Positions 4,770 through 64,000 of a stretch of DNA of 64,000 nt are shown here, piece by piece. The DNA comes from Alphaproteobacteria bacterium (GTDB taxonomy: Bacteria > Pseudomonadota > Alphaproteobacteria > UBA828). Each line of letters opens with the position of its first letter. Within the stretch, counting starts at the first letter, position 1. The notes beneath the pieces are model-generated. The model did not search any database, had not been told where the DNA came from, and worked only from the letters and a program-made list of their open reading frames with translations. The stretch spans positions 64,001-128,000 of the forward strand of contig CAXXVO010000015.1 of the NCBI GenBank assembly GCA_963422645.2, in the 5' to 3' direction. Made by a program: the position numbers and the translations under genes.

Positions 4770-6657
4770 GTAACTGCCCAGGTCGTCTGATTTGTCATTT
4801 TGGGCCAGTGGATTGAGGCGTTTCTCGTTCGGAGTTGGTGGAAAGGGCTTGACGGGAATTTCGGGAAATGACTCAACAACGACATGAGCAATCCCGAGTC
4901 GCCGCGCGGCCCTTCGACGGGAGCAGCGCCCGAAACGCCCGCGCAGAAGATCGCCCGCCTGGAGGAGGAGAACGCCCGGCTTCGGGAGGAAAATGCCTGG
5001 CTTCGGCAGCAGAACGCGCGGCTGGAAGAGCAAGTCGCGCGTCTCGTCGAGCGCATCGAGGAGTTGGAGCGCCGTCTCGGCCTCAACAGCGGCAACAGCG
5101 GCAAGCCGCCTTCGAGCGATGGGCTGAGGAAGCCGAATTCGAAGCGGCGAACCCGAAGCCTGCGCGGCAAATCGGGCCGCAAGCCCGGTGGCCAGCCCGG
5201 CCACAAGGGCAAGACGCTGCGCCGCGCCGATCACCCGGATCGGGTGAAGGATCACGTCCCGGCTTCCTGCAAGGGATGCGGTTCGCCGCTTTCGGACGCG
5301 GCCAGGGCGGGAACGCCCGTCGCCCGCCAGGTGTTCGATCTGCCCGAGCCGAGCCCCCTGGAGGTGACCGAGCACCGGGCGCATGCCAAGTGCTGCGGGC
5401 ATTGCGGGACGGTGACCCGGGCGGCGTTCCCCGACGGGGTGTCGGCGCCGGTGCAGTACGGCCCGCGCATTGCCGGGGTGGCGGTCTACCTTCAGCACGC
5501 TCACTTCCTGCCGGAGGATCGGCTGTCGCAGGTGATGGCCGAGCTCTTCGGCGCGCCGGTGACGGCTGCGACGTTGGCGACGATGAGCGAGAGGGCGGCC
5601 GAGCGGCTGCGGGACGCGGCCTTGCACATACAGGACCTGGCGGCGGGCACGGCGCGGGTGAAACACATGGACGAGACCGGCTTGCGGATCGGCGGTCAGA
5701 CGCAGTGGCTTCATGTGATCTGCACGCCGCTGCTGGCGGCGTACCGGGTCAGCGGCAAGCGCGGCGCCCTGCTCTCGGGTGTCTCCGGCATCGTCGTGCA
5801 CGATCACTGGAAGCCGTACTTCGCGATGGAAGGGGTGGAGCACGGCCTGTGCAACGCCCATCACCTGCGGGAGTTGCAGGCGCTGGTGGACATCGAAGGG
5901 GAGGCTTGGGCCCGGCGGATGCAGCAGCTCCTGCGCCGAGCCAATCGCGCCGCCCGCATCGCGCTGGACAAGGATATCGCCGTTCCGGCGAGGCTTGTGG
6001 CGCTGATCGAGCGCCGATACGACGAGATCATCGCCGATGCGCTGGCCTTTCACGAGAGCCAACCACCGTTCTCGCCTGGCAAGAGGAAGAAGCGCCGGAA
6101 GCGAAGGATCGGTCACAATCTGGCCTTGAGGCTGCGCGACCACAAATGCGCGGTGCTCCGGTTCCTGATCGACCTCGAGGTCGGGTTCACGAACAACGAG
6201 GCCGAGCGCGACCTTCGGATGATGAAGCTGCGCCAGAAGATCTCCGGGGGCTTCCGGTCCGCGCAGGGGGCCGAGAACTTCGCCATCCTGCGCAGCGTCA
6301 TCACCACCGCCAGAAAGCAGGGCTGGAATATCATCGAAGCCCTGACCAGCCCATCGGATCGGCTCATCGCCACCGTCAAGTGCGCGTAAGCTCACCTGGC
6401 ACGGGTTCTCCAACAGCGGAGCCATTCTCATAAACGATCATGGTCGACGCCGTGCTGGACCACCCCATAGAATGAAAATCGGTGCCCGTCGCGCGGGCGG
6501 ACTTCGGGCCACATCGGGGTAGCTTACCGGTCGCAGTCCGCAAGAGGGGCATCGTGAGCTGTGAAACCCGGCGACCCCAGAGGAGCACACGGGCGTCGCG
6601 TGGGTAGCGTTGTGCCGAATCCCAGAGAATTTTCACAGCAAGAACCTGGGCAGTTAC
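4770..6657 (+). mobile_element. IS66-family element (single transposase, ISBst12-like), no passenger gene
   Basis: Terminal IR GTAACTGCCCAGGT at both ends; 8-bp TSD AAAATTTG at 4762-4769 and 6658-6665. Confidence 0.95.
4884..6389 (+). CDS. IS66-family transposase (TnpC-like)
   Basis: Coiled coil, NSGKPPSSDG, GGQPGHKG, zinc finger, HMDETG, VHDHW, LCNAHHLREL and NNEAERDLR. Confidence 0.95.
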   Translation: MSNPESPRGPSTGAAPETPAQKIARLEEENARLREENAWLRQQNARLEEQVARLVERIEELERRLGLNSGNSGKPPSSDGLRKPNSKRRTRSLRGKSGRKPGGQPGHKGKTLRRADHPDRVKDHVPASCKGCGSPLSDAARAGTPVARQVFDLPEPSPLEVTEHRAHAKCCGHCGTVTRAAFPDGVSAPVQYGPRIAGVAVYLQHAHFLPEDRLSQVMAELFGAPVTAATLATMSERAAERLRDAALHIQDLAAGTARVKHMDETGLRIGGQTQWLHVICTPLLAAYRVSGKRGALLSGVSGIVVHDHWKPYFAMEGVEHGLCNAHHLRELQALVDIEGEAWARRMQQLLRRANRAARIALDKDIAVPARLVALIERRYDEIIADALAFHESQPPFSPGKRKKRRKRRIGHNLALRLRDHKCAVLRFLIDLEVGFTNNEAERDLRMMKLRQKISGGFRSAQGAENFAILRSVITTARKQGWNIIEALTSPSDRLIATVKCA

Positions 6658-6740: not shown

Positions 6741-8030
6741 ATGCCACGCTCGAAACCCCTGCTCGCCGGAACGGTGGTCCCTGTGGTCATCGGGCTTGCG
6801 GTCGCCACCAGTGGCGGCCACGCCACCGCCGGCACATCCGCCGGCGAGAGTCCGGGGGCGACCCCGCAACAGCAGGAACCGGGCGTGCTCCTCTTCGCTT
6901 CCTGCAACCCCTGCGGACCATGCGGGCCCTGCAATCCGTGCGATTCATGCGCAGCGGCATGCGGGCCCTGTGGGCCGTGCAATCCTTGCAATCCCTGTAA
7001 TCCCTGTGCCGGTGCGTGCAATCCCTGCGAACCCTGGGACGCCTGCAACCCCTGCGCCGGCGCTTGCGGCCCGTGCGGCCCATGCAATCCCTGCAACCCC
7101 TGCGCGGCTGCTTGTGGTCCCTGTGGCCCGTGCAACCCCTGCGCGGCTGGTGCTGCGGTCAGCTCGGACTGCGAAGTCCCACGCCTCGCCGCCGCGAGCA
7201 GCCCCTGTGGGCCGTGTGCTCCCTGCAATCCATGCGGGCCATGCAACCCCTGCGCGGCCTCCTGCGCACCCTGCGGTCCTTGCGGCCCCTGCAACCCCTG
7301 CGCAGCCGCTTGCGCGCCCTGCGGCCCTTGCAACCCATGCGAGCCGTGCAATCCATGCGCAGCCGCCTGCGCACCCTGCAACCCCTGCAGTCCGTGCAAC
7401 CCCTGCGCGGCGGCAAACCCGTGCGGGCCATGCAACCCCTGTGCGGCGGCAAACCCCTGCAATCCCTGTGCACCGTGCGGGCCGTGCGGCGCCTGCAACC
7501 CGTGCAACCCCTGTGCGGCCGGCGAGGAGGTCGAGCTGACCGCAGACGAGGCTCGGGACGCCTATGCCTGCATCAGTGGGGTCATGGCCGAGGGATACGC
7601 CAAGTCGGGCAACCAGTGGGCGGCGTCTTACCGGAACTGGCGCAACGTCGCGGCACAGCCCTATGTCTCCGACACCCACGGCGCGCGCTACGTCAACAAC
7701 TACGCCAACGACATCGGCGTCGACAATTACAGCCTCTTCGAAGAGGCCGGGCCGTCGCCTGCGGGGACCGTGCTGGCCAAGGACAGCTTCACCGTCAAGC
7801 CCAACGGCAAGATCGGCGCCGGGCCGCTCTTCCTGATGGAAAAGATGGAAGCCGGCTTCAACGCCGATACAGGCGACTGGCGCTATACGCTGATCATGCC
7901 GAACGGCCGGACGATCGGCACCACCGGCGGCAAGGGCAACAAGAACGTCGTCTTCTGCGCCGAGTGCCACCTCGGCGTCGAGGACTATGACAGCCGCTTC
8001 TTCCTCGACGAGGACTACCGGGTCCAATAG
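6741..8030 (+). CDS. Exported protein with Cys-rich (CxP)n repeats fused to a C-terminal cytochrome P460/c'-beta family domain
   Basis: RBS AGGGAGG, signal peptide; C-terminal [21 protein letters not shown] and heme motif CAECH. Confidence 0.85.
6903..7514 (+). repeat. Degenerate 9-nt coding tandem repeat (C-N/G/A-P) in two blocks
   Basis: Repeated TGCAACCCC/TGCGGCCCG units; 58 Cys in 204 codons by manual count. Confidence 0.95.
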
Positions 8031-9152: not shown

Positions 9153-9821
9153 ATGGCCATCGCCGTGATCGGAGGCACCGGTCCCCAGGGCCGCGGGCTG
9201 GCTCAGCGCTGCGCGCTCGCCGGCATCGATGTGGTGGTCGGCTCGCGCGATGCCACCCGCGCAGCGGAGATTGCCGCCGATCTTAGGGACGGCGTGCCTG
9301 ACGCGCCGGGGGCAATCGAAGGCGCCGCCAACGCCGACGCGGTCGCGCAAGCCGAGCGCATGGTGGTGCTGGCGGTGCCGTGGAGCGCGCACCAGGCGAC
9401 GCTCGCGGGGCTCACCGAAGCGCTGCAGGGGAAGATCCTGGTTGACATGGCGGTGCCGCTCGCCGACGGCAATCCCCGGCGCACCGCGATGCCCCCCGAG
9501 GGCTCGGCGACCGAGGCGGCGCAGGCGATGCTCGGCGAAGGCGTCGCCGTGGTGGGCGCGCTCCACAACGTCTCCGCCCACGTGCTCGCCGCCCTCGATC
9601 AGCCGATCAACTGCGACATCCTCGTCTGCGGCGACGATCTGGAGGCGAAGCGCGTGGTGATGGACCTGGTCGAGACCATCGGGGCGCGCGCCTACAATTG
9701 CGGCCCGGCCGAGAGCGCGCGCTGCATCGAGGCGATGACCTCGTTGCTGATTCGCCTCAACATGTCCAAGGCGACGGGCTTCAAGCACGCGGGCGTAAAG
9801 ATCTGGCCGGAAGCCGGGTGA
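9153..9821 (+). CDS. npdG: NADPH-dependent F420 reductase
   Basis: Motifs [21 protein letters not shown] and ALHNVSA. Confidence 0.88.
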
Positions 9822-9832
9822 GGGAGACGACC

Positions 9833-10852
9833 ATGGAATTCGCCATCACTTTCCGCGGCGATCTAGACAAGGATCGCATCGTCGCCATCTGCCGGCAGGC
9901 CGAGGCGGCGGGTTTCGACTACGCCTGGTTCTTCGACAGCCACGCGCTGTGGCGCGACCTCTACCCGCAGATGGCGGTTGCCATCGAGCACACACGGCGG
10001 CTGCGCTTCGGCCCCTGCGTCACCAACCCGATGACCCGCGAATGGTCGGTGGCCGCGAGCCTGTTCGGGGCGATGGCGGTGCAGTCGGACGGCCGCTTCG
10101 ACATGGGCGTGGGGCGCGGCGACAGCGCCGTGCGCGCAATCGGCAAGCGGCCGGCGACGGTGGCGCGCCTGGAGGAGTTCTGCCACGCGATGAAGGCGCT
10201 GGTGCGGGGCGAGGCGGTCACCTACGAGGGCGTGCCGGAGCCGGTGCAGTTCGACTGGACCGGCGGCTACGAGATGCCGGTCTGGGTTGCGGCCTACGGG
10301 CCCCGGGCGCTGGCGGCAGCCGGCCGTGTCGGCGACGGGCTGATCGTGCAGCTCGCCGATGTCGGCCTCTGCCAGTGGATGGGTGGCCAGGCGCGCGCTG
10401 CCGGCCGCGCCGAGGGCCGCGACATGGCGGACTATCGCGTCATGGCCTGTGCGCCGGTCTGGGTCGGCGATCGCGAGGCCGGGATCGCCCAGACCAAGTG
10501 GTTCCCGGCGCTAGTGGGCAACCACGTGGCCGACATCGTGAAGCACCACGGCGCCGGCACCGACCTCGTGCCGAAGAGCCTCACCGCCTACATCGCGCAG
10601 CGCGAAGGCGTCGGCGCCGATGAGGGCTACGACTACCACCAGCACACCGCGCTGGAGTCGGACAACAGCGCCTACGTCTCGCCCGAGATCACCGAGGACT
10701 TCTGCGTGATCGGCCCGGCCGAGGCCCATGTCGAGAAGATTCGGGCGCTGGAGGCCGCCGGCGTCACCCAGTTCAACATTTACCTCACCAACGGCGGCGA
10801 GGAGCAGATCGTCGCGGCCTACGCCGACCACGTGCTCCCGCACTTTCGTTAG
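9833..10852 (+). CDS. LLM-class (probably F420-dependent) oxidoreductase
   Basis: Motifs WFFDSH, GPCVTNP, GRGDSA and AAYGPRAL; adjacent to npdG. Confidence 0.87.
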   Translation: MEFAITFRGDLDKDRIVAICRQAEAAGFDYAWFFDSHALWRDLYPQMAVAIEHTRRLRFGPCVTNPMTREWSVAASLFGAMAVQSDGRFDMGVGRGDSAVRAIGKRPATVARLEEFCHAMKALVRGEAVTYEGVPEPVQFDWTGGYEMPVWVAAYGPRALAAAGRVGDGLIVQLADVGLCQWMGGQARAAGRAEGRDMADYRVMACAPVWVGDREAGIAQTKWFPALVGNHVADIVKHHGAGTDLVPKSLTAYIAQREGVGADEGYDYHQHTALESDNSAYVSPEITEDFCVIGPAEAHVEKIRALEAAGVTQFNIYLTNGGEEQIVAAYADHVLPHFR

Positions 10853-10957
10853 GAGGTAACTGCCCAGGTCTGATTCTGCCGAGCACTCGGACGTGATGGA
10901 TTGATGGTTCTGACCAGCCAGGGGTCAGGCGGCGCTTTCCCGGAGCAGCGCAGGATT

Positions 10958-12499
10958 TCAGAAGCGCAATACGGGGATCAGCTGGATTGGATCGGGGTGC
11001 GCCAGGGTTTCGAGGACATTCCAGCGCTGTTTTCGAGCGGTGGCGATGACGGATCGCAGGTTTGCGAAGTCGCGGGCGCCTTGTATCGAGCGGAAGCCGC
11101 CTGAGATTTTCTGGCGCAGCTTGCCCATTCGGAGGTCGCGCTCGGCCTCGTTGTTGGAGAAGGGGGTTCGCGGATCGGTGAGGAAGCGCAGGCACCCCTC
11201 CTTGTACTTCTGGAGTCGGAGGGCGAGGTTGTGACCGATGCGGCGCTTTTGTCGTCCGCGCTTTCCGGTCTGGAGCGGTGGCATTTCTTCGTGAGAGGCG
11301 ATGGCACGTTCGAGGATGCGGTCCCAGGCTCGCGAGATGCGGGCCACCAGTGAGGCGGGCACGTCGCGGTCGTTCTTGTGGGCGAAGCGGGCGGCTCTGT
11401 TGGCACGGATGAGGAGCCGGTGCGTGCTCGTTGCCCAGTCTTCCTTCTCGATCTCGATGAGGGCTTGGAGCTCGCGCAGGTGATGGGCGTTGCAGGCCCC
11501 GTGGCGCACGCCCTCGAGAGCGAAGTAGGTGGCGTAGTCGTCATGGATGACGATGCCGTTGAGCTTCTCGTCGATGTGGCTGCGCCCGGTGGCGACGCGC
11601 AGGATGGTGAGCAACGGGGTGCACAGCACATGGAGCCAATGGGTCCGGGCGGCGATGCGGATGCCGGTCTCGTCGAGGTGTTTGACTGGGGCTGCGGTGC
11701 GGATGATCTCCGCGAGGCGATCGAGGAAGCCCTCGAAGCGCCGGGCGGTGCGCCTTCCCATGGCGACGATGGTGGCTGTTGAGAGCTTGACCGCGAAGAG
11801 GTCGCTCATGACCTCGGCGACCCGCTTCTCGGGAATGAACTGAGCGTGCAGCAGGTAGGTCACCCACGCGGTGATGCGCGGCCCGTATTGGACCGGTGCG
11901 CTCACGCCGTTCGGGAAGACGGCTGTCGTCACGGTGCCGCAGGCAGCGCAGAGGCAACGATGGCCGCGATGTTCGGTGACCTCGAGGGGCTGCGGCTCGG
12001 GCACATCGAAGACCTGCCGGCAGACGGGGGCTCCGTGACGGTCAGCGTCCGACAGCGGCGCGCCGCAGCCCTCACAGGCGGACGGATCATGATCGACGAC
12101 ATGGTCGGGCGTCGCGGTCCGCTCCAGGGTAGTTCCCTTGTGGCCCGGCTGGCCGCCACTGGGCCTGTCGGACTTGCCGCGCTGGCTCCGGGTGCGCTTC
12201 TCCCGGTCACCGCTCTTCTTCTTCAGACCGTCGCTGGCCGGCGGCTTGGAGCTGGTGGTGCTGTCGAGCGCGGCGCTGCGCTCGAGTTCGGCGATCCGCT
12301 CGCGCAAGCGGGCGTTCTCCCGCTCCAGCGCGTCGTTCTCCTTGACCAGGGCCGCGCTCAGGCGCAGCAACCTCTGGCCCCATTCCCGAATGGCTTTGAC
12401 GGCGGTCATTGCGAAGGATTGTGGGGTGAAAAGGTCCTGCAGGCACGCGAAGGCCTCGTCGTGGGCAGCGAGGTCCTCGTGCCAGCGCGACACTGTCAC
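10958..12499 (-). CDS. IS66-family transposase
   Basis: Motifs SSKPPASDG, HLDETG, HDDY and NNEAERDLR; GTG start overlaps the MTase stop (GTGA). Confidence 0.93.
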   Translation of the reverse strand: MTVSRWHEDLAAHDEAFACLQDLFTPQSFAMTAVKAIREWGQRLLRLSAALVKENDALERENARLRERIAELERSAALDSTTSSKPPASDGLKKKSGDREKRTRSQRGKSDRPSGGQPGHKGTTLERTATPDHVVDHDPSACEGCGAPLSDADRHGAPVCRQVFDVPEPQPLEVTEHRGHRCLCAACGTVTTAVFPNGVSAPVQYGPRITAWVTYLLHAQFIPEKRVAEVMSDLFAVKLSTATIVAMGRRTARRFEGFLDRLAEIIRTAAPVKHLDETGIRIAARTHWLHVLCTPLLTILRVATGRSHIDEKLNGIVIHDDYATYFALEGVRHGACNAHHLRELQALIEIEKEDWATSTHRLLIRANRAARFAHKNDRDVPASLVARISRAWDRILERAIASHEEMPPLQTGKRGRQKRRIGHNLALRLQKYKEGCLRFLTDPRTPFSNNEAERDLRMGKLRQKISGGFRSIQGARDFANLRSVIATARKQRWNVLETLAHPDPIQLIPVLRF

Positions 12500-13164
12500 G
12501 AACCCTCGTCGGCCTCGACGGCCATGATCGCGGCCAGCACCGCCAGGCGTTCGCCCGCCGGCATGGCCTCGTAGCGCCGGCCCCAGTTGGCCGCCTTGCG
12601 CTTGATGCACTGGCGCTCGGTGAAGTTCCGGCCGGCGAAGCTCGCCCAGTGCACCCGGTCAGGCGCGAAGTTGAACCACACGACCTCGGTCCGCACCTGG
12701 GCCTGGGTCGTCACCTGCAGCGCCAGCCGGCGCCAGCCCGCCAGCAGCTCGTCATAGAGCGCAGACGGGTGGCCCGAGACCATCACCTGGCAGGGCAGAC
12801 CCTTGAGCAGTTCGAGGAGCGCGACGTGGTCGGCCTCCTCGTACTCGAAGCGGTAGCGCTGCGACGAACGCCGGGTCGCGTGCAGATAGGGCGGATCGCT
12901 GTAGACCAGCTCCGGGCCCAGAAACGGGAACGAGGCCAGGAAGGAATGGGCGCAGCCGGGCACCAACTCCACCGGGTAGTCGCAGCCAAAGGCCTCAAGC
13001 GCCCGCTCGTCGCGGTCGATCCCGATCGAGCGCATGGCCGCAGGCTTGCGCTTCATCAGCGCCCCGCCCCCAAGATGGCTCTCGATATAGACAGAGTGCG
13101 GCGGCATCAGCGCAATCAGCGCCTGGCTCAGACCGGTCGTCGCCTTCGACCCGAAATACCCCAC
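12496..13164 (-). CDS. Compact Dam/D12-like N6-adenine DNA methyltransferase
   Basis: N-terminal YFGSK, motif I YIESHLGGGA, motif II IGID, catalytic VYSDPPY and EVVWFN. Confidence 0.88.
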   Translation of the reverse strand: MGYFGSKATTGLSQALIALMPPHSVYIESHLGGGALMKRKPAAMRSIGIDRDERALEAFGCDYPVELVPGCAHSFLASFPFLGPELVYSDPPYLHATRRSSQRYRFEYEEADHVALLELLKGLPCQVMVSGHPSALYDELLAGWRRLALQVTTQAQVRTEVVWFNFAPDRVHWASFAGRNFTERQCIKRKAANWGRRYEAMPAGERLAVLAAIMAVEADEGS

Positions 13165-13548
13165 CGGCTGCTCCTCTCATGCGAGAGTGCAACCCATAGG
13201 CGAGAGAACCTATACAGTCAAGCGGGGATCAACGACGCGCCGACGGCGAAACGGCACCGACGGCAAGCAACATCAGCACGCACTCAGAACTGGCGGCGGG
13301 GTACCTGGGTAGTTACGTTAGGAGTAGGGTGTCGCCCTGGCGCGGGCGGACTGACGTCGCTCCGAGAAATCCGGCAGGCCTGTAAAGAACGCAGCGCGAA
13401 GTCCCGGTAATTCGGGCAGAATGAGCCGGCAGGCGCTCAGCCTTCTCGCATCAGGGAGGTCGGTTCGATGACCGAGATCGCGTCCAATTCACGCCGATTG
13501 GCTGTTGTGCGGACTTCTGGGAAAGCGCATCGGCCGAGATTCACCAAG

Positions 13549-30674: not shown

Positions 30675-31103
30675 CTTGAGTTACTAGGGCATAGCAGGAA
30701 GTCGGAGGCCCGGCGGCTAATGGCAAGTATGGGGGTTGGCAACCCGGCTTCCGGTGTCGAGTGGACGCGGCGGACCCTACATTCTAACGCGACGGCACAC
30801 TTGCCATATGACATTGCATACACCCGCACGCATGAAGCGTTTTTGTAACTACCCAGGTACCCCAATCCTGAGTTGAGGACGGTGATTATGGCGGCGGCCG
30901 CGGTCTGGTTCTGCCACCGCGATTGGTTCTTGACCTCATAGAGTTGCGGGACTATGGACTGCTCTATCGCGTGACGGGAGCGGTCCATGGGGTATTTCGG
31001 CTCGAAGGCGACAGCAGGTCTGTGCCAAGCGCTGATTGCGCTGATGCCGCCGCACTCCGTCTACATCGAAAGCCACCTTCAGAACTCCTGACATGGTGCA
31101 ATT

Positions 31104-33386
31104 TCAAATGGCGGAAAGAGCCGGGGGCTGGAAGACGAATCGGAGTTGCGTTCCCGGATAGAGGTGCGATTCGGCGGTGAGATTTTCGCAGAGATGAGCG
31201 AGAGCGCGGTTGAATCGCGGGTTGGCCATGGAGTGGAAGCGGAGGATGAGTATCTGTCGTTCGGGTCGCGGGATCATGTCGGCCGGAAGCTGGTAGACCG
31301 CCTTGAGGAAAGTGCGGCCCTCCTCGGCATCGCGCATGAACAGCGGTGCGATCATGGGCAGCATCGCACTCTCGGCGCGGTATGCGATCATGCGGATCAG
31401 GTCGGTGAAGCGCTTGCGTTCGATCTCGAGACGAACGATGTCCGCCTCGTCCATCACGGTCTTGGCCGACACCTTCTTCGGCAAGGCTCTCTTCCCGGCC
31501 CGGATCTCCTTGAGGATACGGTCGAACTCGCCGATCCATTCCCTGATGTCCGGCAGGTCCGGATCGCTCGGCTTCCGGTCGCGCAGTTCGCCGTAGCGAA
31601 TGCGAAGCTTGTCGAGCGCCTTCTTCACGATCTTCCGGCTTTTCTCCAGAGCCTTGATCTGAGGATTTGCCATCGGGCGGTCGGGGTCTGCGGCTTCTGC
31701 GGCATAGCTGCACCGATGGTCGAGGGCGTATTCCTGGCGCATGTATTTGAAGTAGTTCTCCTGCCGCCATCGCGCGAACATCCGGGCGGCGACGGCGCCG
31801 GTCGACAGGTCGGTGCGCGTGGTCACGATCGAGGTCTGGTGGCCGTTGTCGCATAGCCTGCGAACTTCGCGCACTGTCAGAGAGTCACCGCCCCCGGTGC
31901 TGAGCGCGAGCGGCTTTTCGGCCAGCTTCCAGGTCATCGGCTTGCCTGCCTTCTGCCGGCCGCTCGGATCGACAACGGTGACGAAGTCCTGCTGTGGCCA
32001 GGGGGCGTAGCGACCCTTGCGATAGGTCATGATGTCGAAGCCGGCGATCGACCAGCGCTGGAAGGCAGCCGGGCTCCAGGCGCCGCGATCGAACACCACG
32101 GTCGGCCGCGGCCCGGCGCCGACCTCGTCGCGGATTTTCGGGAGAACCGCGTTCTCAAGCATCGACAGCAGGTCGTCATTGGCTTCGGCGGTGACGAAGA
32201 ACCAGGGCTGCGCCTGCGCGTCGTTCACCCAGGTATCGGAGGTCGCCGGCATGCACAGCCGACGCTGCGGCGACCAGGTCTTCGGGATCTTGTACTTGCG
32301 GCCATGATAGGGCCGGACATGGCCGTCGACATAGAGATAGCCCAGCGCCTCGGGGCGCGCCCAACGCCGGGCCAGCGCATCGGCGAAGTGGCGCGCCTTG
32401 CCCATGGCGCCGATTTCCGCGAGCTTGCGGCGCAAGGTCTTCACCTCCGGCGCGCGGTCGAGGCCGAGCAGCAGGCCGAGTTCGCCCGGCGCATGGGCTT
32501 TGAGCTGCTCCGGCGTGCGTATCCGCAGCAGCGCCATGAAGGTGAGCAACAACAGCACGCTGCACAGACCGAAGAAGCCCTTCTTGAGATGGCCGTAGGC
32601 TTGCTCGCCGGCCGCGAACAGGCCCTGATCCAGCACCGCCGGCAGCGCCAGCAGCACACCGGCTCCCGGCACCGCTTCCGCCGCCTGCACCTGCATCGGC
32701 GCCTCCGTCAGGCGGCCGGCCATCGCCAGAGTCCGTTCCTCAATCCGCTTGACGGCAACACCGGCGCTGCACTGCGCATCCGCCGCCGAACGCAGCGACG
32801 GTCCCGGCCCGGTCTCCAGGATGCCCTGTGGGAGCGACAACGATACCGGCGCTTCCGTTCGCTGAGCGCCCGGCGCCGGTGCAGCTGCAACCGAACCCTG
32901 CGCCGGCCCGGCACCCTTGCCTCCTCGCGCCGTCCGCTTGCCCGGCCGCACCAGCTTGCCGGTCTTGATCGCCGCCCTGACGCACCCTTCCGAGACCCCG
33001 ACGGCACGCCCTGTTGCCGACACGCTCGCACCTGCGTCGAGCAGCTCCTGTGCCAGGGTGAGCTCGGCCCCGGCCAGCTTGTATCCTTTTCTTGGACGCG
33101 GCTTCGCGATGAGCGCCTCCAGCCCACCGTCGAGATACTTGTCACGATTGCGCCGGACGGTCTGCCCGCTGACACCCATCGCCCTTGCCAGAGCTTCGGC
33201 TGAGACCAGACGCTGTGCAGTGAGCATCGCCATTGCGTGGCGTTTCCCGAGGGCATCGTCTTCGGCATAGGTGAAGATCGGGCCCGCGCTGTTGAAAAAG
33301 ACGACCCTTCCGTCCTCTTCGACCATTGCGAGCGTCTCGGAGATGACGATGGCGTTTTCCGGCCACAGCGGAAACTGAAGCTGCAT
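31104..33386 (-). CDS. Large putative DDE transposase (760 aa) with N-terminal HTHs
   Basis: Motifs LYVDGH, VVFDRG and MFARWRQENYFKY (YREK-like); fills the IR-bounded element. Confidence 0.85.
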   Translation of the reverse strand: MQLQFPLWPENAIVISETLAMVEEDGRVVFFNSAGPIFTYAEDDALGKRHAMAMLTAQRLVSAEALARAMGVSGQTVRRNRDKYLDGGLEALIAKPRPRKGYKLAGAELTLAQELLDAGASVSATGRAVGVSEGCVRAAIKTGKLVRPGKRTARGGKGAGPAQGSVAAAPAPGAQRTEAPVSLSLPQGILETGPGPSLRSAADAQCSAGVAVKRIEERTLAMAGRLTEAPMQVQAAEAVPGAGVLLALPAVLDQGLFAAGEQAYGHLKKGFFGLCSVLLLLTFMALLRIRTPEQLKAHAPGELGLLLGLDRAPEVKTLRRKLAEIGAMGKARHFADALARRWARPEALGYLYVDGHVRPYHGRKYKIPKTWSPQRRLCMPATSDTWVNDAQAQPWFFVTAEANDDLLSMLENAVLPKIRDEVGAGPRPTVVFDRGAWSPAAFQRWSIAGFDIMTYRKGRYAPWPQQDFVTVVDPSGRQKAGKPMTWKLAEKPLALSTGGGDSLTVREVRRLCDNGHQTSIVTTRTDLSTGAVAARMFARWRQENYFKYMRQEYALDHRCSYAAEAADPDRPMANPQIKALEKSRKIVKKALDKLRIRYGELRDRKPSDPDLPDIREWIGEFDRILKEIRAGKRALPKKVSAKTVMDEADIVRLEIERKRFTDLIRMIAYRAESAMLPMIAPLFMRDAEEGRTFLKAVYQLPADMIPRPERQILILRFHSMANPRFNRALAHLCENLTAESHLYPGTQLRFVFQPPALSAI

Positions 33387-33480
33387 CGGCTATGTTCCTG
33401 AACCGCGTTGTGCCCCTTTGCCGCGCATTGTAAGCGAGTTCGGCTGCTCACTACGAGGCCCCTTTACAGCGCCCATATCA

Positions 33481-33510
33481 TTGACATTAGTTGGAATACC
33501 CTGCTATTCT
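33481..33510 (+). promoter_or_regulatory. Putative outward-facing sigma70 promoter in the nested IS end
   Basis: TTGACA-N18-TATTCT with an extended -10 TG. Confidence 0.45.
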
Positions 33511-34212
33511 GACCGCTTCTTTCTGCCGCTCGTCCCGCATCTTTTCGCCTCAACACTTGACATTACGAAGGTCGGCCGGCGGTTCCCAAAACATTCTCAA
33601 TGATTCAATCACTTACCAGCGTAATGTCAGGAGTTCTGACCTTGGGGGCGGGGCGCTGATGAAGCGCAAGCCGCCGGCCGTGCGTTCGATCGGCATCGAC
33701 CGCGATGCGCAGGCGCTCGAGGCCTTCGTCTGCGACTACCCGGTCGATCTGGTTCACGGCTGTGCCCATGACTTCCTGGCCTCGTTCCCGTTCCTGGGCC
33801 CGGAGCTGGTTTACAGCGATCCGCCCTATCTGCACGCGACCCGCCGCTCGGCGCAGCGCTACCGCTTCGAGTACGAGGAGGCCGGCCACGTCGCGCTTCT
33901 CGCGCTGCTCAAGGCTCTGCCCTGCCAGGTCATGATCTCGGGCCATCCGTCGGCGCTCTATGACGAGGTGCTGGCGGGATGGCGCCGGCTGGCGCTGCAG
34001 GTCACGACCCAGGGTCTGGTGCGAACCGAGGTCGTCTGGTTCAACTACGCCCCCGACCGGATGCATTGGGCCAGCCACGCAGGCCGGAACTTCACCGACC
34101 GCCAGCGCATCAAGCGCAAGGCAGCCAACTGGGGCCGGCGCTACCAGGCCTTGCCGCCGGGCGAACGCCTCGCCGTGCTCGCCGCCATGATGGCCGTCGA
34201 GGCCGAAGACAC

Positions 34213-35751
34213 GTGACGGTGTCGCACTGGCACGAAGACCTCGCCGCCCGTAACGAGGCCTTCTGCTGCCTGAAGGAGCTTCTCGAGCCATCATCCCTCG
34301 CAACCACTGTCGTCGTTGCCGTCCGGGAATGGGGGCAGGGGCTGCTGCGATCAGCCACCGCGCTCGCCCGGGAAAATGCCGCACTCGAGCAGGAGAACGC
34401 GGCCCTGCGCGAGCGCATCGCCGAACTCGAGCGCAGCGCGGCCCTCAACAGCACCACAAGCAGCAAGCCCCCCGCCAGCGACGGGCTCAAGAAGAAAAGC
34501 GGAGCCCAGAGGCGCACCCAAAGCCAGCGCGGAAAGTCCGGCGGGCCCAGTGGCGGCCAGCCCGGCCACAAGGGAACCACCCTCGCGCGGAGCGACAGCC
34601 CGGACCGTGTCGTCGATCACCACCCCTCCACCTGTTCCGGCTGTGGCGTCGAGCTCTCGGACGCCGACCGGCAAGGCGCGCCCGCCTGTCGGCAGGTCTT
34701 CGACGTACCCGAGCCGCAGCCTCTCGAGGTCACCGAACACCGCGCCCATCGCTGCCTCTGCGGCGCATGCGGCACGCTGACACGAGCCGCCTTCCCGCCG
34801 GGCGTCACCGCCCCGGTCCAGTACGGCCCTCGCATCACCGCTTGGGTGAGTTACCTGCTGTACGCCCAGTTCGTGCCCGAGAAGCGTCTGGCCGAACTCA
34901 TGAGCGACATCTTCGCGGTGTCCATCTCCACTGCCACGATCGCCGCCATGGGCCGGCGCACAGCGCAGCGCTTCGAGGGCTTCCTCGACCATGTCGCCGA
35001 TCTGATCCGCACGCAGGCGCCGGTCAAGCACCTCGACGAGACCGGCCTGCGTATCGCCGCCCGTACCCGCTGGCTCCATGTGCTGTGCACCCCGTTGCTC
35101 ACCGTCCTGCGCATCGGCGAGGGACGCGGCGATGTCGAAAAGAACCTGAAAGGCATCCTCGTCCACGACGACTTCGCCCCCTACTTCACCATCAAGGGCG
35201 TCCGCCACGGCGCCTGCAACGCACATCACCTGCGCGAACTCCAGGCCCTGATCGACATCGAGAAGGAGGAATGGGCGGCGAGCATGCACCGCCTGCTTCA
35301 GCGCGCGCGCAGGGCCGCCCGCTTCGCCCGTGAGAAAGACCGTCAAGTCCCCGCCTCCCTGGTGGCCCGCATCTCAAGGGCATGGGACCGTATCCTCGAA
35401 GAAGCCATCGCCTTCCATGAGGCCCAACCGCCGCTCCAGATCGCAAAGCGAGGGCGAAAGAAACGCCGCATCGGCCACAACCTCGCGCGCCGCCTTCAAA
35501 AGCATAAGGAGGGCTGCCTGCGCTTCCTCACCGACCTGCGCACGCCGTTCACGAATAACGAGGCGGAGCGTGACATCCGTATGAACAAAGTGCATGAGAA
35601 GATCTCAGGCGGCTTCCGCTCCCTGCAAGGCGCCTGCAACTTCGCCGGAATGCGCAGCGTCATCGTCACCGCTCGAAAGCAAGGCTGGAACATCCTGCAA
35701 ATCCTGGCGCACCCGGAACCGATGCAGCTGATCCCTATACTGCGCTCCTGA
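34213..35751 (+). CDS. IS66-family transposase
   Basis: Same translation as 60691-62229; motifs HLDETG, HDDF and NNEAERDIR. Confidence 0.93.
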   Translation: MTVSHWHEDLAARNEAFCCLKELLEPSSLATTVVVAVREWGQGLLRSATALARENAALEQENAALRERIAELERSAALNSTTSSKPPASDGLKKKSGAQRRTQSQRGKSGGPSGGQPGHKGTTLARSDSPDRVVDHHPSTCSGCGVELSDADRQGAPACRQVFDVPEPQPLEVTEHRAHRCLCGACGTLTRAAFPPGVTAPVQYGPRITAWVSYLLYAQFVPEKRLAELMSDIFAVSISTATIAAMGRRTAQRFEGFLDHVADLIRTQAPVKHLDETGLRIAARTRWLHVLCTPLLTVLRIGEGRGDVEKNLKGILVHDDFAPYFTIKGVRHGACNAHHLRELQALIDIEKEEWAASMHRLLQRARRAARFAREKDRQVPASLVARISRAWDRILEEAIAFHEAQPPLQIAKRGRKKRRIGHNLARRLQKHKEGCLRFLTDLRTPFTNNEAERDIRMNKVHEKISGGFRSLQGACNFAGMRSVIVTARKQGWNILQILAHPEPMQLIPILRS

Positions 35752-35912
35752 ACTTCTCCGGCTCATCCTGAGTATCGCTGTCCTCTCATCTTGTTCGCGA
35801 CGCGGCGTTCATCATCCTCTCGCGCTCAAGAGAGTAGGCACCCCCGCGGCGTGGGGGCGTTGACGCAAAAGGAACTGGCTTGTTCCATAAGAGAGAGGGG
35901 GTACCTGGGCAG

Positions 35913-36206
35913 TTACGATGAATCATCGAACGCGGACATCCGCTTGAGCGATGACGCGCGGCGTTCGGCCCGAGCCTCCCGTTCCCAAGCTGCGACATCG
36001 ACCCCCTGCGCCTTGAGCGAGGCCTGCCAGCGATCGAGAGCCTCCAGCTTGTTCTTCACGCGCTGATTCTCGTCACCCGCCGCCGCGCGGATTGCGCGAC
36101 GCAGCACTTCGGATTTCGACACGTTCCAGCGGCGCGCGAGCGACTCCAGCGTGCGCACGGTCTCGACATCCAGCGAATAGGTCGATTTGATCGTCGTTAC
36201 GACCAT
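35913..36206 (-). CDS. CopG/ribbon-helix-helix protein, probable antitoxin (stop codon supplied by the IS)
   Basis: RHH pattern STYSLD..TV..LE.LARRWNVSKSEVLRRAI. Confidence 0.75.
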   Translation of the reverse strand: MVVTTIKSTYSLDVETVRTLESLARRWNVSKSEVLRRAIRAAAGDENQRVKNKLEALDRWQASLKAQGVDVAAWEREARAERRASSLKRMSAFDDSS

Positions 36207-59394: not shown

Positions 59395-60525
59395 TCAGTC
59401 CCAGAAGTACATGGGCGTGTTGGTGAGCATCTCGATGCCGTCTTCCTTGACGATGAAGTTCTGCTCGAAACCCGCGGCCCCCACGCCCTTGCGCATGAGG
59501 AAGGCCTCGGAGCTGCACACCATGTTGGCCTCGATCACCTCGTCGTCGGTGCAGGTCTCTGCGCCGTAGATCGGGCGCTCGAAATAGAGACCGCAGCTAT
59601 GCCCATAGAGCGGCCACTGCTCGCCGGCCTGGTCGGGATCGCCATGCGCCTCCTCCGTCAGCCTGTCGCCGATACGCGCGAGCTCCTTGGCCGCTATGCC
59701 CGGCCTGAATGCCTCGATCACACCTTCGACGATGCCGCCGCAGGCCTCGATGAGATCGCGCTGTGCGCTGGTTGGCCGGCCGCGCACTGTGGTCCGCCCG
59801 GGATCGAGCCAGTAGCCCTTGCACATCGGGCCCATCAACCAGGCGCGCACCATGTCGCCCTCTTTGGGTGCGTCGGCACTGGCGCCGGTGAGGGACTCCC
59901 GGGCGAAGTTGGTCATCTCCCGGTCCACGCCGTGGGAGCAGCGAATGATCGTCGGCACACCGCCGCGTTCAACGACTATCTTTGCTGCCTCGCCGGCCGC
60001 CTCGCGCTCTGACTTGCCGACGAGCAGCCCCTTCATCATGGCATCCAGCCCGAGCGTCACGGTCTCACCGCCTTCCCGAAAGGCGTCGAGCTCGAGCGGA
60101 CTCTTGATCAGGCGCGGCTTCTGAACGAGGTCGTCCTCGAACACCCACTCGATATCGGGGGTCATCGCCTCGAGCTGGCGCATGTACTTCACGCCGAAGA
60201 AGTCGCTGCCGACGAGCGCCACGCGTCCCGAGATGCCGCGACGGTTGAGCTCCTTGGCCACGCCCTCCACCGGGTTCATGTGCCAATCCACCCGATCGGT
60301 GGCGACGTCCTCGGCGCGGGGTGACGGCTCGTCCATGTGAAGATGCGGCGTCTCGCCGCTTTGCATGATCACGGCGGCATGCGCCCGTGCGCTCCACAGA
60401 GGAACCTCGGGCTCATGGCCGGAATGGCAGGAATACCAGTTGGAGAGATAGAGCACGTCGGCACAACGCTCGTGAGTGCTGGCGCTGCGGCTCCAGATCA
60501 CGGCGACGTCGTAGCCGCGATTTTT
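59395..60525 (-). pseudogene. M24 (Xaa-Pro peptidase/creatinase-like) hydrolase, 5' end removed at the IS junction
   Basis: Motifs RLIKSPLE, GYWLDPGRT, GHSCGL and GFEQN; the frame runs into the IS IR with no native start. Confidence 0.82.
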
Positions 60526-60690
60526 GTAACTGCCCAGGTACCCCCTCTCTCTTATGGAACAAGCCAGTTCCTTTTGCGTCAACGCCCCCACGCCGCGGGG
60601 GTGCCTACTCTCTTGAGCGCGAGAGGATGATGAACGCCGCGTCGCGAACAAGATGAGAGGACAGCGATACTCAGGATGAGCCGGAGAAGT

Positions 60691-62229
60691 TCAGGAGCGC
60701 AGTATAGGGATCAGCTGCATCGGTTCCGGGTGCGCCAGGATTTGCAGGATGTTCCAGCCTTGCTTTCGAGCGGTGACGATGACGCTGCGCATTCCGGCGA
60801 AGTTGCAGGCGCCTTGCAGGGAGCGGAAGCCGCCTGAGATCTTCTCATGCACTTTGTTCATACGGATGTCACGCTCCGCCTCGTTATTCGTGAACGGCGT
60901 GCGCAGGTCGGTGAGGAAGCGCAGGCAGCCCTCCTTATGCTTTTGAAGGCGGCGCGCGAGGTTGTGGCCGATGCGGCGTTTCTTTCGCCCTCGCTTTGCG
61001 ATCTGGAGCGGCGGTTGGGCCTCATGGAAGGCGATGGCTTCTTCGAGGATACGGTCCCATGCCCTTGAGATGCGGGCCACCAGGGAGGCGGGGACTTGAC
61101 GGTCTTTCTCACGGGCGAAGCGGGCGGCCCTGCGCGCGCGCTGAAGCAGGCGGTGCATGCTCGCCGCCCATTCCTCCTTCTCGATGTCGATCAGGGCCTG
61201 GAGTTCGCGCAGGTGATGTGCGTTGCAGGCGCCGTGGCGGACGCCCTTGATGGTGAAGTAGGGGGCGAAGTCGTCGTGGACGAGGATGCCTTTCAGGTTC
61301 TTTTCGACATCGCCGCGTCCCTCGCCGATGCGCAGGACGGTGAGCAACGGGGTGCACAGCACATGGAGCCAGCGGGTACGGGCGGCGATACGCAGGCCGG
61401 TCTCGTCGAGGTGCTTGACCGGCGCCTGCGTGCGGATCAGATCGGCGACATGGTCGAGGAAGCCCTCGAAGCGCTGCGCTGTGCGCCGGCCCATGGCGGC
61501 GATCGTGGCAGTGGAGATGGACACCGCGAAGATGTCGCTCATGAGTTCGGCCAGACGCTTCTCGGGCACGAACTGGGCGTACAGCAGGTAACTCACCCAA
61601 GCGGTGATGCGAGGGCCGTACTGGACCGGGGCGGTGACGCCCGGCGGGAAGGCGGCTCGTGTCAGCGTGCCGCATGCGCCGCAGAGGCAGCGATGGGCGC
61701 GGTGTTCGGTGACCTCGAGAGGCTGCGGCTCGGGTACGTCGAAGACCTGCCGACAGGCGGGCGCGCCTTGCCGGTCGGCGTCCGAGAGCTCGACGCCACA
61801 GCCGGAACAGGTGGAGGGGTGGTGATCGACGACACGGTCCGGGCTGTCGCTCCGCGCGAGGGTGGTTCCCTTGTGGCCGGGCTGGCCGCCACTGGGCCCG
61901 CCGGACTTTCCGCGCTGGCTTTGGGTGCGCCTCTGGGCTCCGCTTTTCTTCTTGAGCCCGTCGCTGGCGGGGGGCTTGCTGCTTGTGGTGCTGTTGAGGG
62001 CCGCGCTGCGCTCGAGTTCGGCGATGCGCTCGCGCAGGGCCGCGTTCTCCTGCTCGAGTGCGGCATTTTCCCGGGCGAGCGCGGTGGCTGATCGCAGCAG
62101 CCCCTGCCCCCATTCCCGGACGGCAACGACGACAGTGGTTGCGAGGGATGATGGCTCGAGAAGCTCCTTCAGGCAGCAGAAGGCCTCGTTACGGGCGGCG
62201 AGGTCTTCGTGCCAGTGCGACACCGTCAC
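60691..62229 (-). CDS. IS66-family transposase
   Basis: Motifs HLDETG, HDDF and NNEAERDIR; GTG start overlaps the MTase stop. Confidence 0.93.
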   Translation of the reverse strand: MTVSHWHEDLAARNEAFCCLKELLEPSSLATTVVVAVREWGQGLLRSATALARENAALEQENAALRERIAELERSAALNSTTSSKPPASDGLKKKSGAQRRTQSQRGKSGGPSGGQPGHKGTTLARSDSPDRVVDHHPSTCSGCGVELSDADRQGAPACRQVFDVPEPQPLEVTEHRAHRCLCGACGTLTRAAFPPGVTAPVQYGPRITAWVSYLLYAQFVPEKRLAELMSDIFAVSISTATIAAMGRRTAQRFEGFLDHVADLIRTQAPVKHLDETGLRIAARTRWLHVLCTPLLTVLRIGEGRGDVEKNLKGILVHDDFAPYFTIKGVRHGACNAHHLRELQALIDIEKEEWAASMHRLLQRARRAARFAREKDRQVPASLVARISRAWDRILEEAIAFHEAQPPLQIAKRGRKKRRIGHNLARRLQKHKEGCLRFLTDLRTPFTNNEAERDIRMNKVHEKISGGFRSLQGACNFAGMRSVIVTARKQGWNILQILAHPEPMQLIPILRS

Positions 62230-62891
62230 GTGTCTTCGGCCTCGACGGCCATCATGGCGGCGAGCACGGCGAGGCGTTCGCCCGGCGGCAAGGCCTGGTA
62301 GCGCCGGCCCCAGTTGGCTGCCTTGCGCTTGATGCGCTGGCGGTCGGTGAAGTTCCGGCCTGCGTGGCTGGCCCAATGCATCCGGTCGGGGGCGTAGTTG
62401 AACCAGACGACCTCGGTTCGCACCAGACCCTGGGTCGTGACCTGCAGCGCCAGCCGGCGCCATCCCGCCAGCACCTCGTCATAGAGCGCCGACGGATGGC
62501 CCGAGATCATGACCTGGCAGGGCAGAGCCTTGAGCAGCGCGAGAAGCGCGACGTGGCCGGCCTCCTCGTACTCGAAGCGGTAGCGCTGCGCCGAGCGGCG
62601 GGTCGCGTGCAGATAGGGCGGATCGCTGTAAACCAGCTCCGGGCCCAGGAACGGGAACGAGGCCAGGAAGTCATGGGCACAGCCGTGAACCAGATCGACC
62701 GGGTAGTCGCAGACGAAGGCCTCGAGCGCCTGCGCATCGCGGTCGATGCCGATCGAACGCACGGCCGGCGGCTTGCGCTTCGTCAGCGCCCCGCCCCCAA
62801 GGTGGCTTTCGATGTAGACGGAGTGCGGCGGCATCAGCGCAATCAGCGCTTGGCACAGACCTGCTGTCGCCTTCGAGCCGAAATACCCCAT
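62226..62891 (-). CDS. Compact Dam/D12-like N6-adenine DNA methyltransferase
   Basis: Motifs YFGSK, YIESHLGGGA, IGID and VYSDPPY. Confidence 0.88.
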   Translation of the reverse strand: MGYFGSKATAGLCQALIALMPPHSVYIESHLGGGALTKRKPPAVRSIGIDRDAQALEAFVCDYPVDLVHGCAHDFLASFPFLGPELVYSDPPYLHATRRSAQRYRFEYEEAGHVALLALLKALPCQVMISGHPSALYDEVLAGWRRLALQVTTQGLVRTEVVWFNYAPDRMHWASHAGRNFTDRQRIKRKAANWGRRYQALPPGERLAVLAAMMAVEAEDT

Positions 62892-63033
62892 GGACCGCTC
62901 CCGTCACGCGAGAGAGCAGTCCATAGTCCCGCAACTCTATGAGGTCAAGAACCAATCGCGGTGGCAGAACCAGGCCGCGGCCGCCGCCATAATCACCGTC
63001 CTCAACTCAGGATTGGGGTACCTGGGTAGTTAC

Positions 63034-64000
63034 GATTTGTCATTTTGGGCCAGTGGATTGAGGCGTTTCTCGTTCGGAGTTGGTGGAAAGGGCTTGACGG
63101 GAATTTCGGGAAATGACTCAACAACGACATGAGCAATCCCGAGTCGCCGCGCGGCCCTTCGACGGGAGCAGCGCCCGAAACGCCCGCGCAGAAGATCGCC
63201 CGCCTGGAGGAGGAGAACGCCCGGCTTCGGGAGGAAAATGCCTGGCTTCGGCAGCAGAACGCGCGGCTGGAAGAGCAAGTCGCGCGTCTCGTCGAGCGCA
63301 TCGAGGAGTTGGAGCGCCGTCTCGGCCTCAACAGCGGCAACAGCGGCAAGCCGCCTTCGAGCGATGGGCTGAGGAAGCCGAATTCGAAGCGGCGAACCCG
63401 AAGCCTGCGCGGCAAATCGGGCCGCAAGCCCGGTGGCCAGCCCGGCCACAAGGGCAAGACGCTGCGCCGCGCCGATCACCCGGATCGGGTGAAGGATCAC
63501 GTCCCGGCTTCCTGCAAGGGATGCGGTTCGCCGCTTTCGGACGCGGCCAGGGCGGGAACGCCCGTCGCCCGCCAGGTGTTCGATCTGCCCGAGCCGAGCC
63601 CCCTGGAGGTGACCGAGCACCGGGCGCATGCCAAGTGCTGCGGGCATTGCGGGACGGTGACCCGGGCGGCGTTCCCCGACGGGGTGTCGGCGCCGGTGCA
63701 GTACGGCCCGCGCATTGCCGGGGTGGCGGTCTACCTTCAGCACGCTCACTTCCTGCCGGAGGATCGGCTGTCGCAGGTGATGGCCGAGCTCTTCGGCGCG
63801 CCGGTGACGGCTGCGACGTTGGCGACGATGAGCGAGAGGGCGGCCGAGCGGCTTGCGGGACGCGGCCTTGCACATACAGGACCTGGCGGCGGGCACGGCG
63901 CGGGTGAAACACATGGACGAGACCGGCTTGCGGATCGGCGGTCAGACGCAGTGGCTTCATGTGATCTGCACGCCGCTGCTGGCGGCGTACCGGGTCAGCG
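63034..64000 (+). mobile_element. Damaged partial copy of the MTase-less IS66 at 4770-6657
   Basis: Matches the first copy from position 4789 onward; lacks the first 19 bp including the left IR; runs off the window. Confidence 0.92.
63129..64000 (+). pseudogene. IS66 transposase with a +1 frameshift
   Basis: GAGCGGCTTGCGG at 63846-63858 versus GAGCGGCTGCGG in the intact copy. Confidence 0.75.

Follow-up and report, generated by a model that had tools for sequence, protein, structure and literature searches.

Insertion sequences (ISs) usually consist of a transposase gene between two ends, and family-specific accessory genes are the exception. What, then, is a gene for a methyltransferase-like protein doing inside an IS66-family element, with its stop codon overlapping the start of the transposase gene? 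The question is raised by positions 60526–63033 of the window analysed here, a 64,000-nucleotide stretch (positions 64,001–128,000 of contig CAXXVO010000015.1) from the 5.9 Mb genome of an alphaproteobacterium (UBA828 lineage, assembly GCA_963422645.2, 23 contigs). An earlier note on this DNA had proposed a DNA adenine methyltransferase that might methylate the ends of the element, shield incoming DNA or alter the host methylome. The analyses presented here place the protein by homology in a family of plasmid proteins, and find its gene, together with a promoter-like motif and an inverted repeat (IR), in front of the transposases of three IS families. Our best reading, to which we give about an even chance, is that gene, motif and repeat form a portable promoter–operator–regulator cassette exerting feedback on transposase expression.

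The element, which together with its close copies we call family 1, is organized as follows:

60526–63033, minus strand: whole IS, family 1, 2508 bp; IS66 family, ISBst12-like, with one gene added upstream
63015–63033, minus strand: left terminal IR, promoter-proximal end, GTAACTACCCAGGTACCCC read on the minus strand
62226–62891, minus strand: small gene (ATG at 62891) for the methyltransferase-like protein P0002, 221 aa, assigned by homology to the Upf31 family; ratio of nonsynonymous to synonymous substitution (dN/dS) 0.13–0.34
P0002 features: HLGGGA at residues 30–35, DPPY at residues 90–93, two C-terminal helices within residues 181–219
62226–62229, minus strand: GTGA overlap, in which the small-gene stop TGA shares bases with the transposase GTG start
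60691–62229, minus strand: TnpC (P0001), IS66-family DDE transposase, 512 aa, GTG start
60526–60544, minus strand: right terminal IR, transposase-distal end, GTAACTGCCCAGGTACCCC

The terminal repeats, GTAACTGCCCAGGTACCCC and the reverse complement of GTAACTACCCAGGTACCCC, are identical at 18 of 19 positions and both begin GTAAC; IRs starting GTAA and an 8-bp target duplication characterize the IS66 family, and the element has both. P0001 matches NF033517 (289.7 bits, cut-off 180) and Pfam DDE_Tnp_IS66 (PF03050, 4.4e-41, 141.6 bits, cut-off 23.1), as well as DUF6444, with zf-IS66 under its cut-off. The GTG start is in keeping with the fact that protein similarity to relatives begins at residue 1, and the same −4 overlap with GTG is present in 25 of 31 loci of the near lineage. 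Neither tnpA nor tnpB was found in the 2508 bp, which hold two genes only, the upstream protein matching methyltransferase models instead. The element is of the IS66-family, tnpC-only (ISBst12-like) type, and the cassette was acquired between its left end and its transposase gene. In all these respects (an IR-bounded unit of two genes, the GTGA junction, an IS66 element lacking tnpA and tnpB, a DPPY gene in the upstream accessory slot) the earlier note has held up. A further feature of P0001 is its N-terminal stretch of about 68 residues (1–68, 62229–62026), which is kept in a sister family and missing from plasmid-borne IS66 transposases; the latter align to P0001 from residue 69 in 10 of the 12 rows listed and from residue 123 in the other two.

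A BLAST search of the genome with the element returned 36 full-length copies of family 1 (99.68–100% identity), in all of which the start reads GTAACTACCCAG and the end CTGGGCAGTTAC, and about 70 fragments. Perfect 8-bp target duplications flank 22 of these 36 copies, and for this reason the ends can be fixed exactly at 60526 and 63033; the 14 without a duplication suggest recombination between copies. Family 1 is a genuine and recently active element. Its sister, family 2, is about 82% identical to it; of the 14 full-length copies of family 2, 11 are flanked by perfect 8-bp duplications. With these and an abundant tnpC-only element described below, the genome carries a heavy load of IS66-type elements.

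What kind of protein is P0002? It matches PADLOC MTase_II (E 1.4e-21) and PHROG 56 (E 4.8e-17), and falls under the curated cut-offs of Pfam PF02086 (12 bits, cut-off 22) and TIGR00571 (21.1 bits, cut-off 114.85); 21 of 22 relatives match PF02086, only at E ≤1, the best at 1.3e-6. An AlphaFold model (pLDDT, the predicted local distance difference test score, 77.3) has E. coli Dam (4rtl_A) as its top match in the PDB (E 9.5e-6, template modelling score 0.52), with generic Rossmann methyltransferases scoring nearly as well. In the model, helices at 181–199 and 203–219 form a basic C-terminal tail. A glycine loop expected to bind S-adenosylmethionine (SAM) is followed by the catalytic DPPY motif after 56 residues, and none of the 22 aligned relatives differs at G32–G34, D90, P91 or P92. 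The C-terminal RQRIKRKA segment is also highly conserved in this alignment (Q185, R189, K190 and A191 invariant; R186, I187 and K188 in at least 90%). Between loop and DPPY, Dam has a large, DNA-binding insert to which nothing in P0002 corresponds. On homology, then, P0002 would be a distant Dam-like methyltransferase, for which DNA adenine methylation itself is a prediction. A PDB sequence search ranked two tetratricopeptide-repeat hits, judged spurious, above DpnM (E 0.0029), and a homodimer prediction scored 0.28 (mark 0.42) and was used neither way.

The closest studied relative came from plasmids. A tblastn search of P0002 against 72,556 plasmids returned homologues in 196 records, all below 60% identity, of which 134 were typed as conjugative. 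Among them the upf31 product of the IncP-1beta plasmid pBP136 is 46.7% identical to P0002 over residues 1–206 (93% of the query); the alignment extends through the C-terminus, and HLGGG, DPPY and the basic C-terminal helix are common to both. This homology places P0002 in the Upf31 family of IncP-1beta plasmids. Upf31 is the only family member to have been examined experimentally. In the published work (10.1101/2024.02.05.579024; PMC11997246), it gave neither Dam activity nor a single-molecule real-time (SMRT) kinetic signature in methylation-free E. coli, repressed its own 68-bp promoter 50-fold (from 4.76 to 0.09 reporter units) and required its C-terminal dimerisation domain for its effects. 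The same paper assigns the motif order as beta (PMC11997246); this differs from the alignments made here, in which DPPY comes after the glycine loop, the order found in Dam. A link of Upf31 to ISs is absent from PMC11997246, since the word ‘transposase’ occurs there 0 times. The upf31 gene belongs to plasmid backbones (pBP136, R751) and, unlike the small gene of the IS, is not coupled to a transposase; the proposed partner of its product is KorB.

Upstream of the small gene we identified a promoter-like arrangement:

62943–62948, minus strand: putative −35 box TTGACC, 57 nt upstream of the ATG
62922–62941, minus strand: inverted repeat CATAG-N10-CTATG, candidate operator, occupying the 17-nt spacer and the first four −10 bases
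62925–62920, minus strand: putative −10 box TATGGA

Across all lineages the consensus reads CTTGAC, three variable bases, CATAG, ten variable bases, CTATGG, and the loose pattern TTGAC-N2-5-TAG-N9-15-CTA occurs in 66 of 71 unique upstream sequences. Among 40 distinct 48-nt upstream segments, CTTGAC, ATAG and CTATG are the only places of high information, with TTGAC in every one of the 40; complementarity of the 5-nt half-sites in these segments is perfect in 19, with one mismatch in 14, two in six and three in one. The lineage of loci L056, L071 and L078 has both half-sites altered, to GTAG...CTAC. In the window, the repeat (with at most one mismatch) has four matches against 0.36 expected, a number reached by none of 100 shuffles, and three of the four fall at the promoter-like place of the three element copies described below. 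The repeat in its exact form also lies upstream of two of eight plasmid homologues examined; in pBP136 and a Synechocystis plasmid, read by eye, TTGACA and then CATCG occupy the corresponding place. The promoter of upf31 resembles the promoter-like motif of the cassette in having a half-site at the same place after TTGACA, and differs in its half-site word, CATCG/CAGCATCG as against CATAG. The upstream motif would fit the alphaproteobacterial promoter consensus, CTTGAC-N17-CTATAT, and TTGAC-N17-TATGG is probably the promoter of the small gene. A hairpin in the 5′ leader between −10 box and start codon was also considered and rejected, as 22 leaders fold no better than shuffled sequences (z −0.75 to +1.87).

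How widely is this arrangement shared? A scan of one genome per species gave at least 330 confirmed stretches, of which the best 80 loci were analysed. In 74 of the 80 a transposase lies directly downstream on the same strand, and in 68 its open reading frame (ORF) starts −17 to +67 nt from the small-gene stop. The transposases were of the following types:

IS66, window lineage: 31 of 80 loci (blastp to representatives)
IS66, second lineage, at 32% identity to the window lineage: 34 of 80 loci (NF033517, 248 bits)
IS701: 7 of 80 loci (NF049999, 309 bits, cut-off 170)
DDE_Tnp_1 type: 2 of 80 loci (plasmid relatives at 40–43% identity annotated ISNCY; Pfam matches below cut-off)
No recognisable transposase: 6 of 80 loci (of these, two reach the contig end and one is broken up by a different element)

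An ATGA overlap is found in three of the seven IS701 loci and one of the two ISNCY-type loci. By comparing copies within genomes, the small gene could be placed inside the ends of four element types, the family 1 type and three others:

IS701-type element: 2790 and 2537 bp; IR CTCGACTTTGT; 5-bp duplications CTTAG, CTCAG, CTGAG and TTCAG
ISNCY-type element: about 2.14 kb, five copies; IR CAGCAGTTCTCATTTTG; 9-bp duplication
Second-lineage IS66 element: 2294 bp; ends GGTAACTACTC

The cassette is present, then, in three IS families: IS66 (two deep lineages), IS701 and the ISNCY-annotated type. The pairing of methyltransferase-like gene and tnpC that the earlier note described is found in both IS66 lineages; that the cassette is not confined to IS66 had escaped it. 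Each carrier type has its own ends and its own duplication length, and inspection of the ends by eye (GTAACTAC..., CTCGACTTTGT..., CAGCAGTTCTC...) revealed no word common to them. Methylation of the ends at a common site is therefore unlikely and, with neither Dam activity nor a SMRT signal reported for Upf31, the proposal of adenine methylation of ends, incoming DNA or host methylome is unsupported as it was stated. The spread over three families suggests a portable module of self-control. At one locus, L076 (1406–2725), an ORF with alpha/beta-hydrolase domains comes after the small gene, and the IS66 transposase match is reduced to an 87-residue remnant; the cassette may survive decay of its element there. 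The distribution is patchy: the small gene was found in 4 of 40 related genomes, with 1 to 16 matches each against 72 in the present genome. The titles of matching records name many phyla.

Where the partner transposase is down to 30–35% identity or comes from a different family, the small protein is still 67–72% identical. With two plasmid proteins as the root of a tree, the IS-borne proteins form one group (support 100), within which the IS701-linked proteins group with the near IS66-linked ones (support 97); a topology with every IS66-linked protein in one clade, a group named after the tree was seen, is rejected by an approximately unbiased (AU) test (log-likelihood difference 72.4, p 0.0059). 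Between families 1 and 2, dN/dS is 0.235 for the small gene (62226–62891 versus 12496–13164) and 0.244 for tnpC (60691–62229 versus 10958–12499), and dS is 0.31 for the small gene versus 0.63 for the adjacent tnpC; the lower value agrees with a cassette that was exchanged more recently, or converted, between lineages of elements. Over 45 pairs, dN/dS of the small gene ranges from 0.131 to 0.343, and 73 of its 75 full-length hits in the genome are free of stop codons. The small gene is under purifying selection. Since dN/dS is this low, it is not an inert passenger, and the value near 1 which the earlier note had associated with one was not borne out.

These observations lead us to propose the following mechanism for the cassette, argued from homology and conservation. 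P0002 would bind the inverted repeat CATAG-N10-CTATG and, when bound, would shut off the promoter that drives both the small gene and the transposase. Since the transposase start overlaps the small-gene stop, both proteins are probably made from one transcript, with coupled translation. On entry into a naive cell a burst of transposase would follow; later, as copies and protein accumulate, repression would set in, and might act in trans between copies. A near-consensus −35 box and a 17-nt spacer, combined with an autorepressor, would give high expression first and silencing afterwards. The tight coupling of the small gene to tnpC, with which it would share a promoter, also argues against a mere passenger, which in ISs with passenger genes (tIS) is an extra gene inside the ends with no role in transposition or its control.

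Several points weigh against such feedback repression. The analogy rests on one plasmid protein with 46.7% identity, whose published operator is another word (inverted CAGCATCG) and whose effect is ascribed in part to KorB, which is absent here (10.1101/2024.02.05.579024; PMC11997246). Six of the eight plasmid homologues lack the exact repeat. The repeat coincides in part with the −10 box, so that the extra conservation amounts only to the ATAG after the −35 box, and the centres of its half-sites are 15 bp from each other, a spacing uncommon among dimeric repressors. A simple sigma-70 scan of 60400–63150 returned no promoter-like site; it missed the putative promoter because a TATGGA −10 box fails its rule. 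Repression, if it occurs, has not kept the element from reaching 36 copies. Finally, the invariance of D90, P91, P92 and G32–G34 in all 22 relatives argues that catalysis matters, and a pure repressor needs none.

It is this last point that an operator-specific methyltransferase would accommodate. P0002 would then methylate the adenines of the bipartite repeat in its own promoter, and full methylation, or hemimethylation once the DNA has replicated, would set transposase expression. The SAM loop and DPPY are kept in Upf31 as well as in all 22 members, homology to DNA methyltransferases is significant, adenines are present in both half-sites at positions fixed relative to the −35 and −10 boxes, and a 10-base bipartite site would be very rare in the E. 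coli genome and presumably invisible to the SMRT screen of Upf31. On the other side, the region of Dam's DNA-binding insert is absent, with 56 residues from glycine loop to DPPY, the repeat is no more than a candidate substrate, and in the published work methylation has been detected for no member of the family (10.1101/2024.02.05.579024; PMC11997246); we consider this explanation rather unlikely. A bolder version is also doubtful in our judgement: a dimeric methyltransferase targeting only the two promoter half-sites, the cassette being a portable epigenetic switch that couples the transposase to replication and to entry into new cells, was derived from a conjugative-plasmid regulator and was exchanged among at least three IS families. 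An adenine methyltransferase of broad or low specificity, carried as a passenger that pre-modifies host or vehicle DNA against restriction or changes the host methylome, would suit the plasmid relatives at 46–56% identity, with their 134 of 196 records typed as conjugative. In three regions seen, one relative adjoins conjugal-transfer and stbB genes, another lies beside SprT-like and zincin-like metallopeptidase genes, and a third is near a zincin-like metallopeptidase gene; the patchiness (4 of 40 other genomes) and the many phyla in record titles point the same way. Lacking a recognition insert, P0002 also recalls the promiscuous enzymes Hia5 and Hin1523, which with Nma1821 are described in PMC3299994 as Dam-related phage adenine methyltransferases with DPPY and FxGxG and an anti-restriction role. 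The likeness is one of description: the recognition region at about residues 80–170, divergent in Hia5, is kept in those enzymes (PMC3299994), whereas P0002 lacks it, with its 56 residues between the motifs. A broad enzyme would be expected to leave a genome-wide kinetic signal and, because the SMRT screen of Upf31 in methylation-free E. coli was negative, a broad anti-restriction function is less likely. An early anti-restriction need would not call for a gene that invariably precedes a transposase gene of weak expression on the same strand and is tightly coupled to it, and the conserved promoter repeat would be left unexplained. We see only a small chance for this alternative.

Could P0002 instead be a cofactor of transposition, a substitute for TnpA and TnpB that helps the transposase, for example, to recognise ends, choose targets or assemble its complex? 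It occupies the same slot as the accessory genes of IS66 and has the same stop–start overlap, and the near-lineage TnpC carries some 68 N-terminal residues that are missing from plasmid-borne IS66 transposases. Such a specific role is, however, hard to reconcile with a protein that, at 68–85% identity, serves unrelated transposase families with different ends, and the tnpC-only IS66 element of the same genome has 137 hits at ≥97% identity without the small gene; we regard a cofactor as quite improbable. Least of all do we favour an inert hitch-hiker, a gene fragment caught by chance and spread by recent bursts of transposition. Copies within the genome are 99.7–100% identical, so that their intactness alone says little, but dN/dS of 0.13–0.34 holds across lineages, 68–72% identity persists where the partner transposase is 30–35% identical or of another family, the upstream motif is conserved and 73 of 75 full-length hits are open. 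This explanation is disfavoured to the point of being barely credible.

The proposed feedback cassette may usefully be set beside known systems. Canonical IS66 and IS679 elements have tnpA-tnpB-tnpC, with the accessory frames upstream of tnpC joined by stop–start overlaps; the upstream protein here has a methyltransferase fold by prediction and is neither TnpA nor TnpB. In IS10, IS50 and IS903, host Dam methylation (GATC) at the transposase promoter or the ends ties expression to replication, whereas the candidate enzyme here is borne by the element and its activity is putative. IS1 InsA and IS911 OrfA are upstream-frame products that bind the promoter or the end and limit transposase; they are of unrelated fold, the site predicted here lies in an internal promoter and not in a terminal repeat, and the cassette moves between IS families. 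Upf31 did not act on GATC (10.1101/2024.02.05.579024). ISBst12 is given as a subgroup of IS66 in Table 4 of PMC8024623. Like that group, the element has a single DDE_Tnp_IS66 transposase without tnpA or tnpB, ends starting GTAA and an 8-bp duplication; unlike it, it adds the upstream gene with its own promoter-like motif, the GTGA-overlap start and about 68 extra N-terminal residues of TnpC.

The remaining features of the window concern the other copies and their surroundings:

30845–35916, plus strand: copy 2 of family 1, identical in sequence, split within the small gene (30845–31079 and 33639–35916)
31080–33638: insertion in copy 2, 2559 bp, with a 760-aa Transposase_29 ORF (PF21804, 5e-96) and helix-turn-helix domains
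10856–13316, minus strand: copy 3, sister family 2, 2461 bp, intact, about 82% identical to family 1
Parts of copy 3: small gene 13164–12496; tnpC with GTG at 12499 (10958–12499); GTGA overlap kept; inverted repeat 13195–13214
63034–64000, plus strand: neighbouring IS66-type element, TnpC only, without the small gene; identical to window positions 4789–5754

The architecture does occur three times in 64 kb, as the earlier note had counted, with the nuance that copy 2 is split and copy 3 represents the sister family. The 5-bp overlap between the halves of copy 2 is probably the target duplication of the 2559-bp insertion, and an ORF related to its Transposase_29 ORF adjoins the small gene in locus L041. 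Copy 3 is flanked on both sides by the 8-bp duplication GTTAGGAG (10848–10855 and 13317–13324) and was inserted three bases past the stop of a luciferase-like monooxygenase gene (9698–10852). The copy at 60526–63033 has no target duplication and abuts the tnpC-only element beginning at 63034, which matches DUF6444, zf-IS66 and DDE_Tnp_IS66; this element is about 1.9 kb long and has a further window copy at about 4770–6657. Its first ~100 bp (63034–63131) is a repeated insertion site of family 1: the flanks of 7 of the 36 full-length copies match this leader at several different positions, one of the seven having a duplication, and the leader upstream of the tnpC-only transposase may be an insertion hotspot. 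On the other side, a Peptidase_M24 gene (59395–60525) extends as far as the element, whose right end is at 60526; the Pfam match of this gene begins only at ORF residue 148. Elsewhere in the window, imperfect tandem repeats of 9 to 57 bp at 6910–7519 and 2790–2857, rich in AACCCCTGC/GGGCCATGC words, are perhaps a Cys/Pro-rich repetitive coding region. No RNA data set was listed as holding the element; one run with a small share is labelled as a sponge metagenome, a label that says nothing about habitat.

Finally, what is new here, and what would it mean? The ISBst12-like backbone, the Upf31 family and the idea of methylation- or repressor-controlled transposition are already known. In a literature search that covered subscription journals thinly, we found no description of an IS66, IS701 or ISNCY transposase gene to which a methyltransferase-like gene is coupled, nor any account of the conserved promoter repeat or of the spread of the cassette over three IS families. 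Counts of orphan methylases or restriction–modification genes in such genomes may be inflated by IS copies, given the 72 matches in this genome to a gene for which annotation pipelines use the name ‘DNA adenine methylase’. That one small gene, a promoter-like motif and a repeat are common to unrelated transposases points to a module useful to any such element and swapped among them. Should P0002 prove to methylate its own operator, the cassette would amount to Dam control as in IS10 and IS50, with the enzyme brought along by the IS itself; if it is an autorepressor, as we favour, these elements would share the burst-then-silence logic of plasmid regulators, which would help to explain how dozens of near-identical copies come to be present in one genome.

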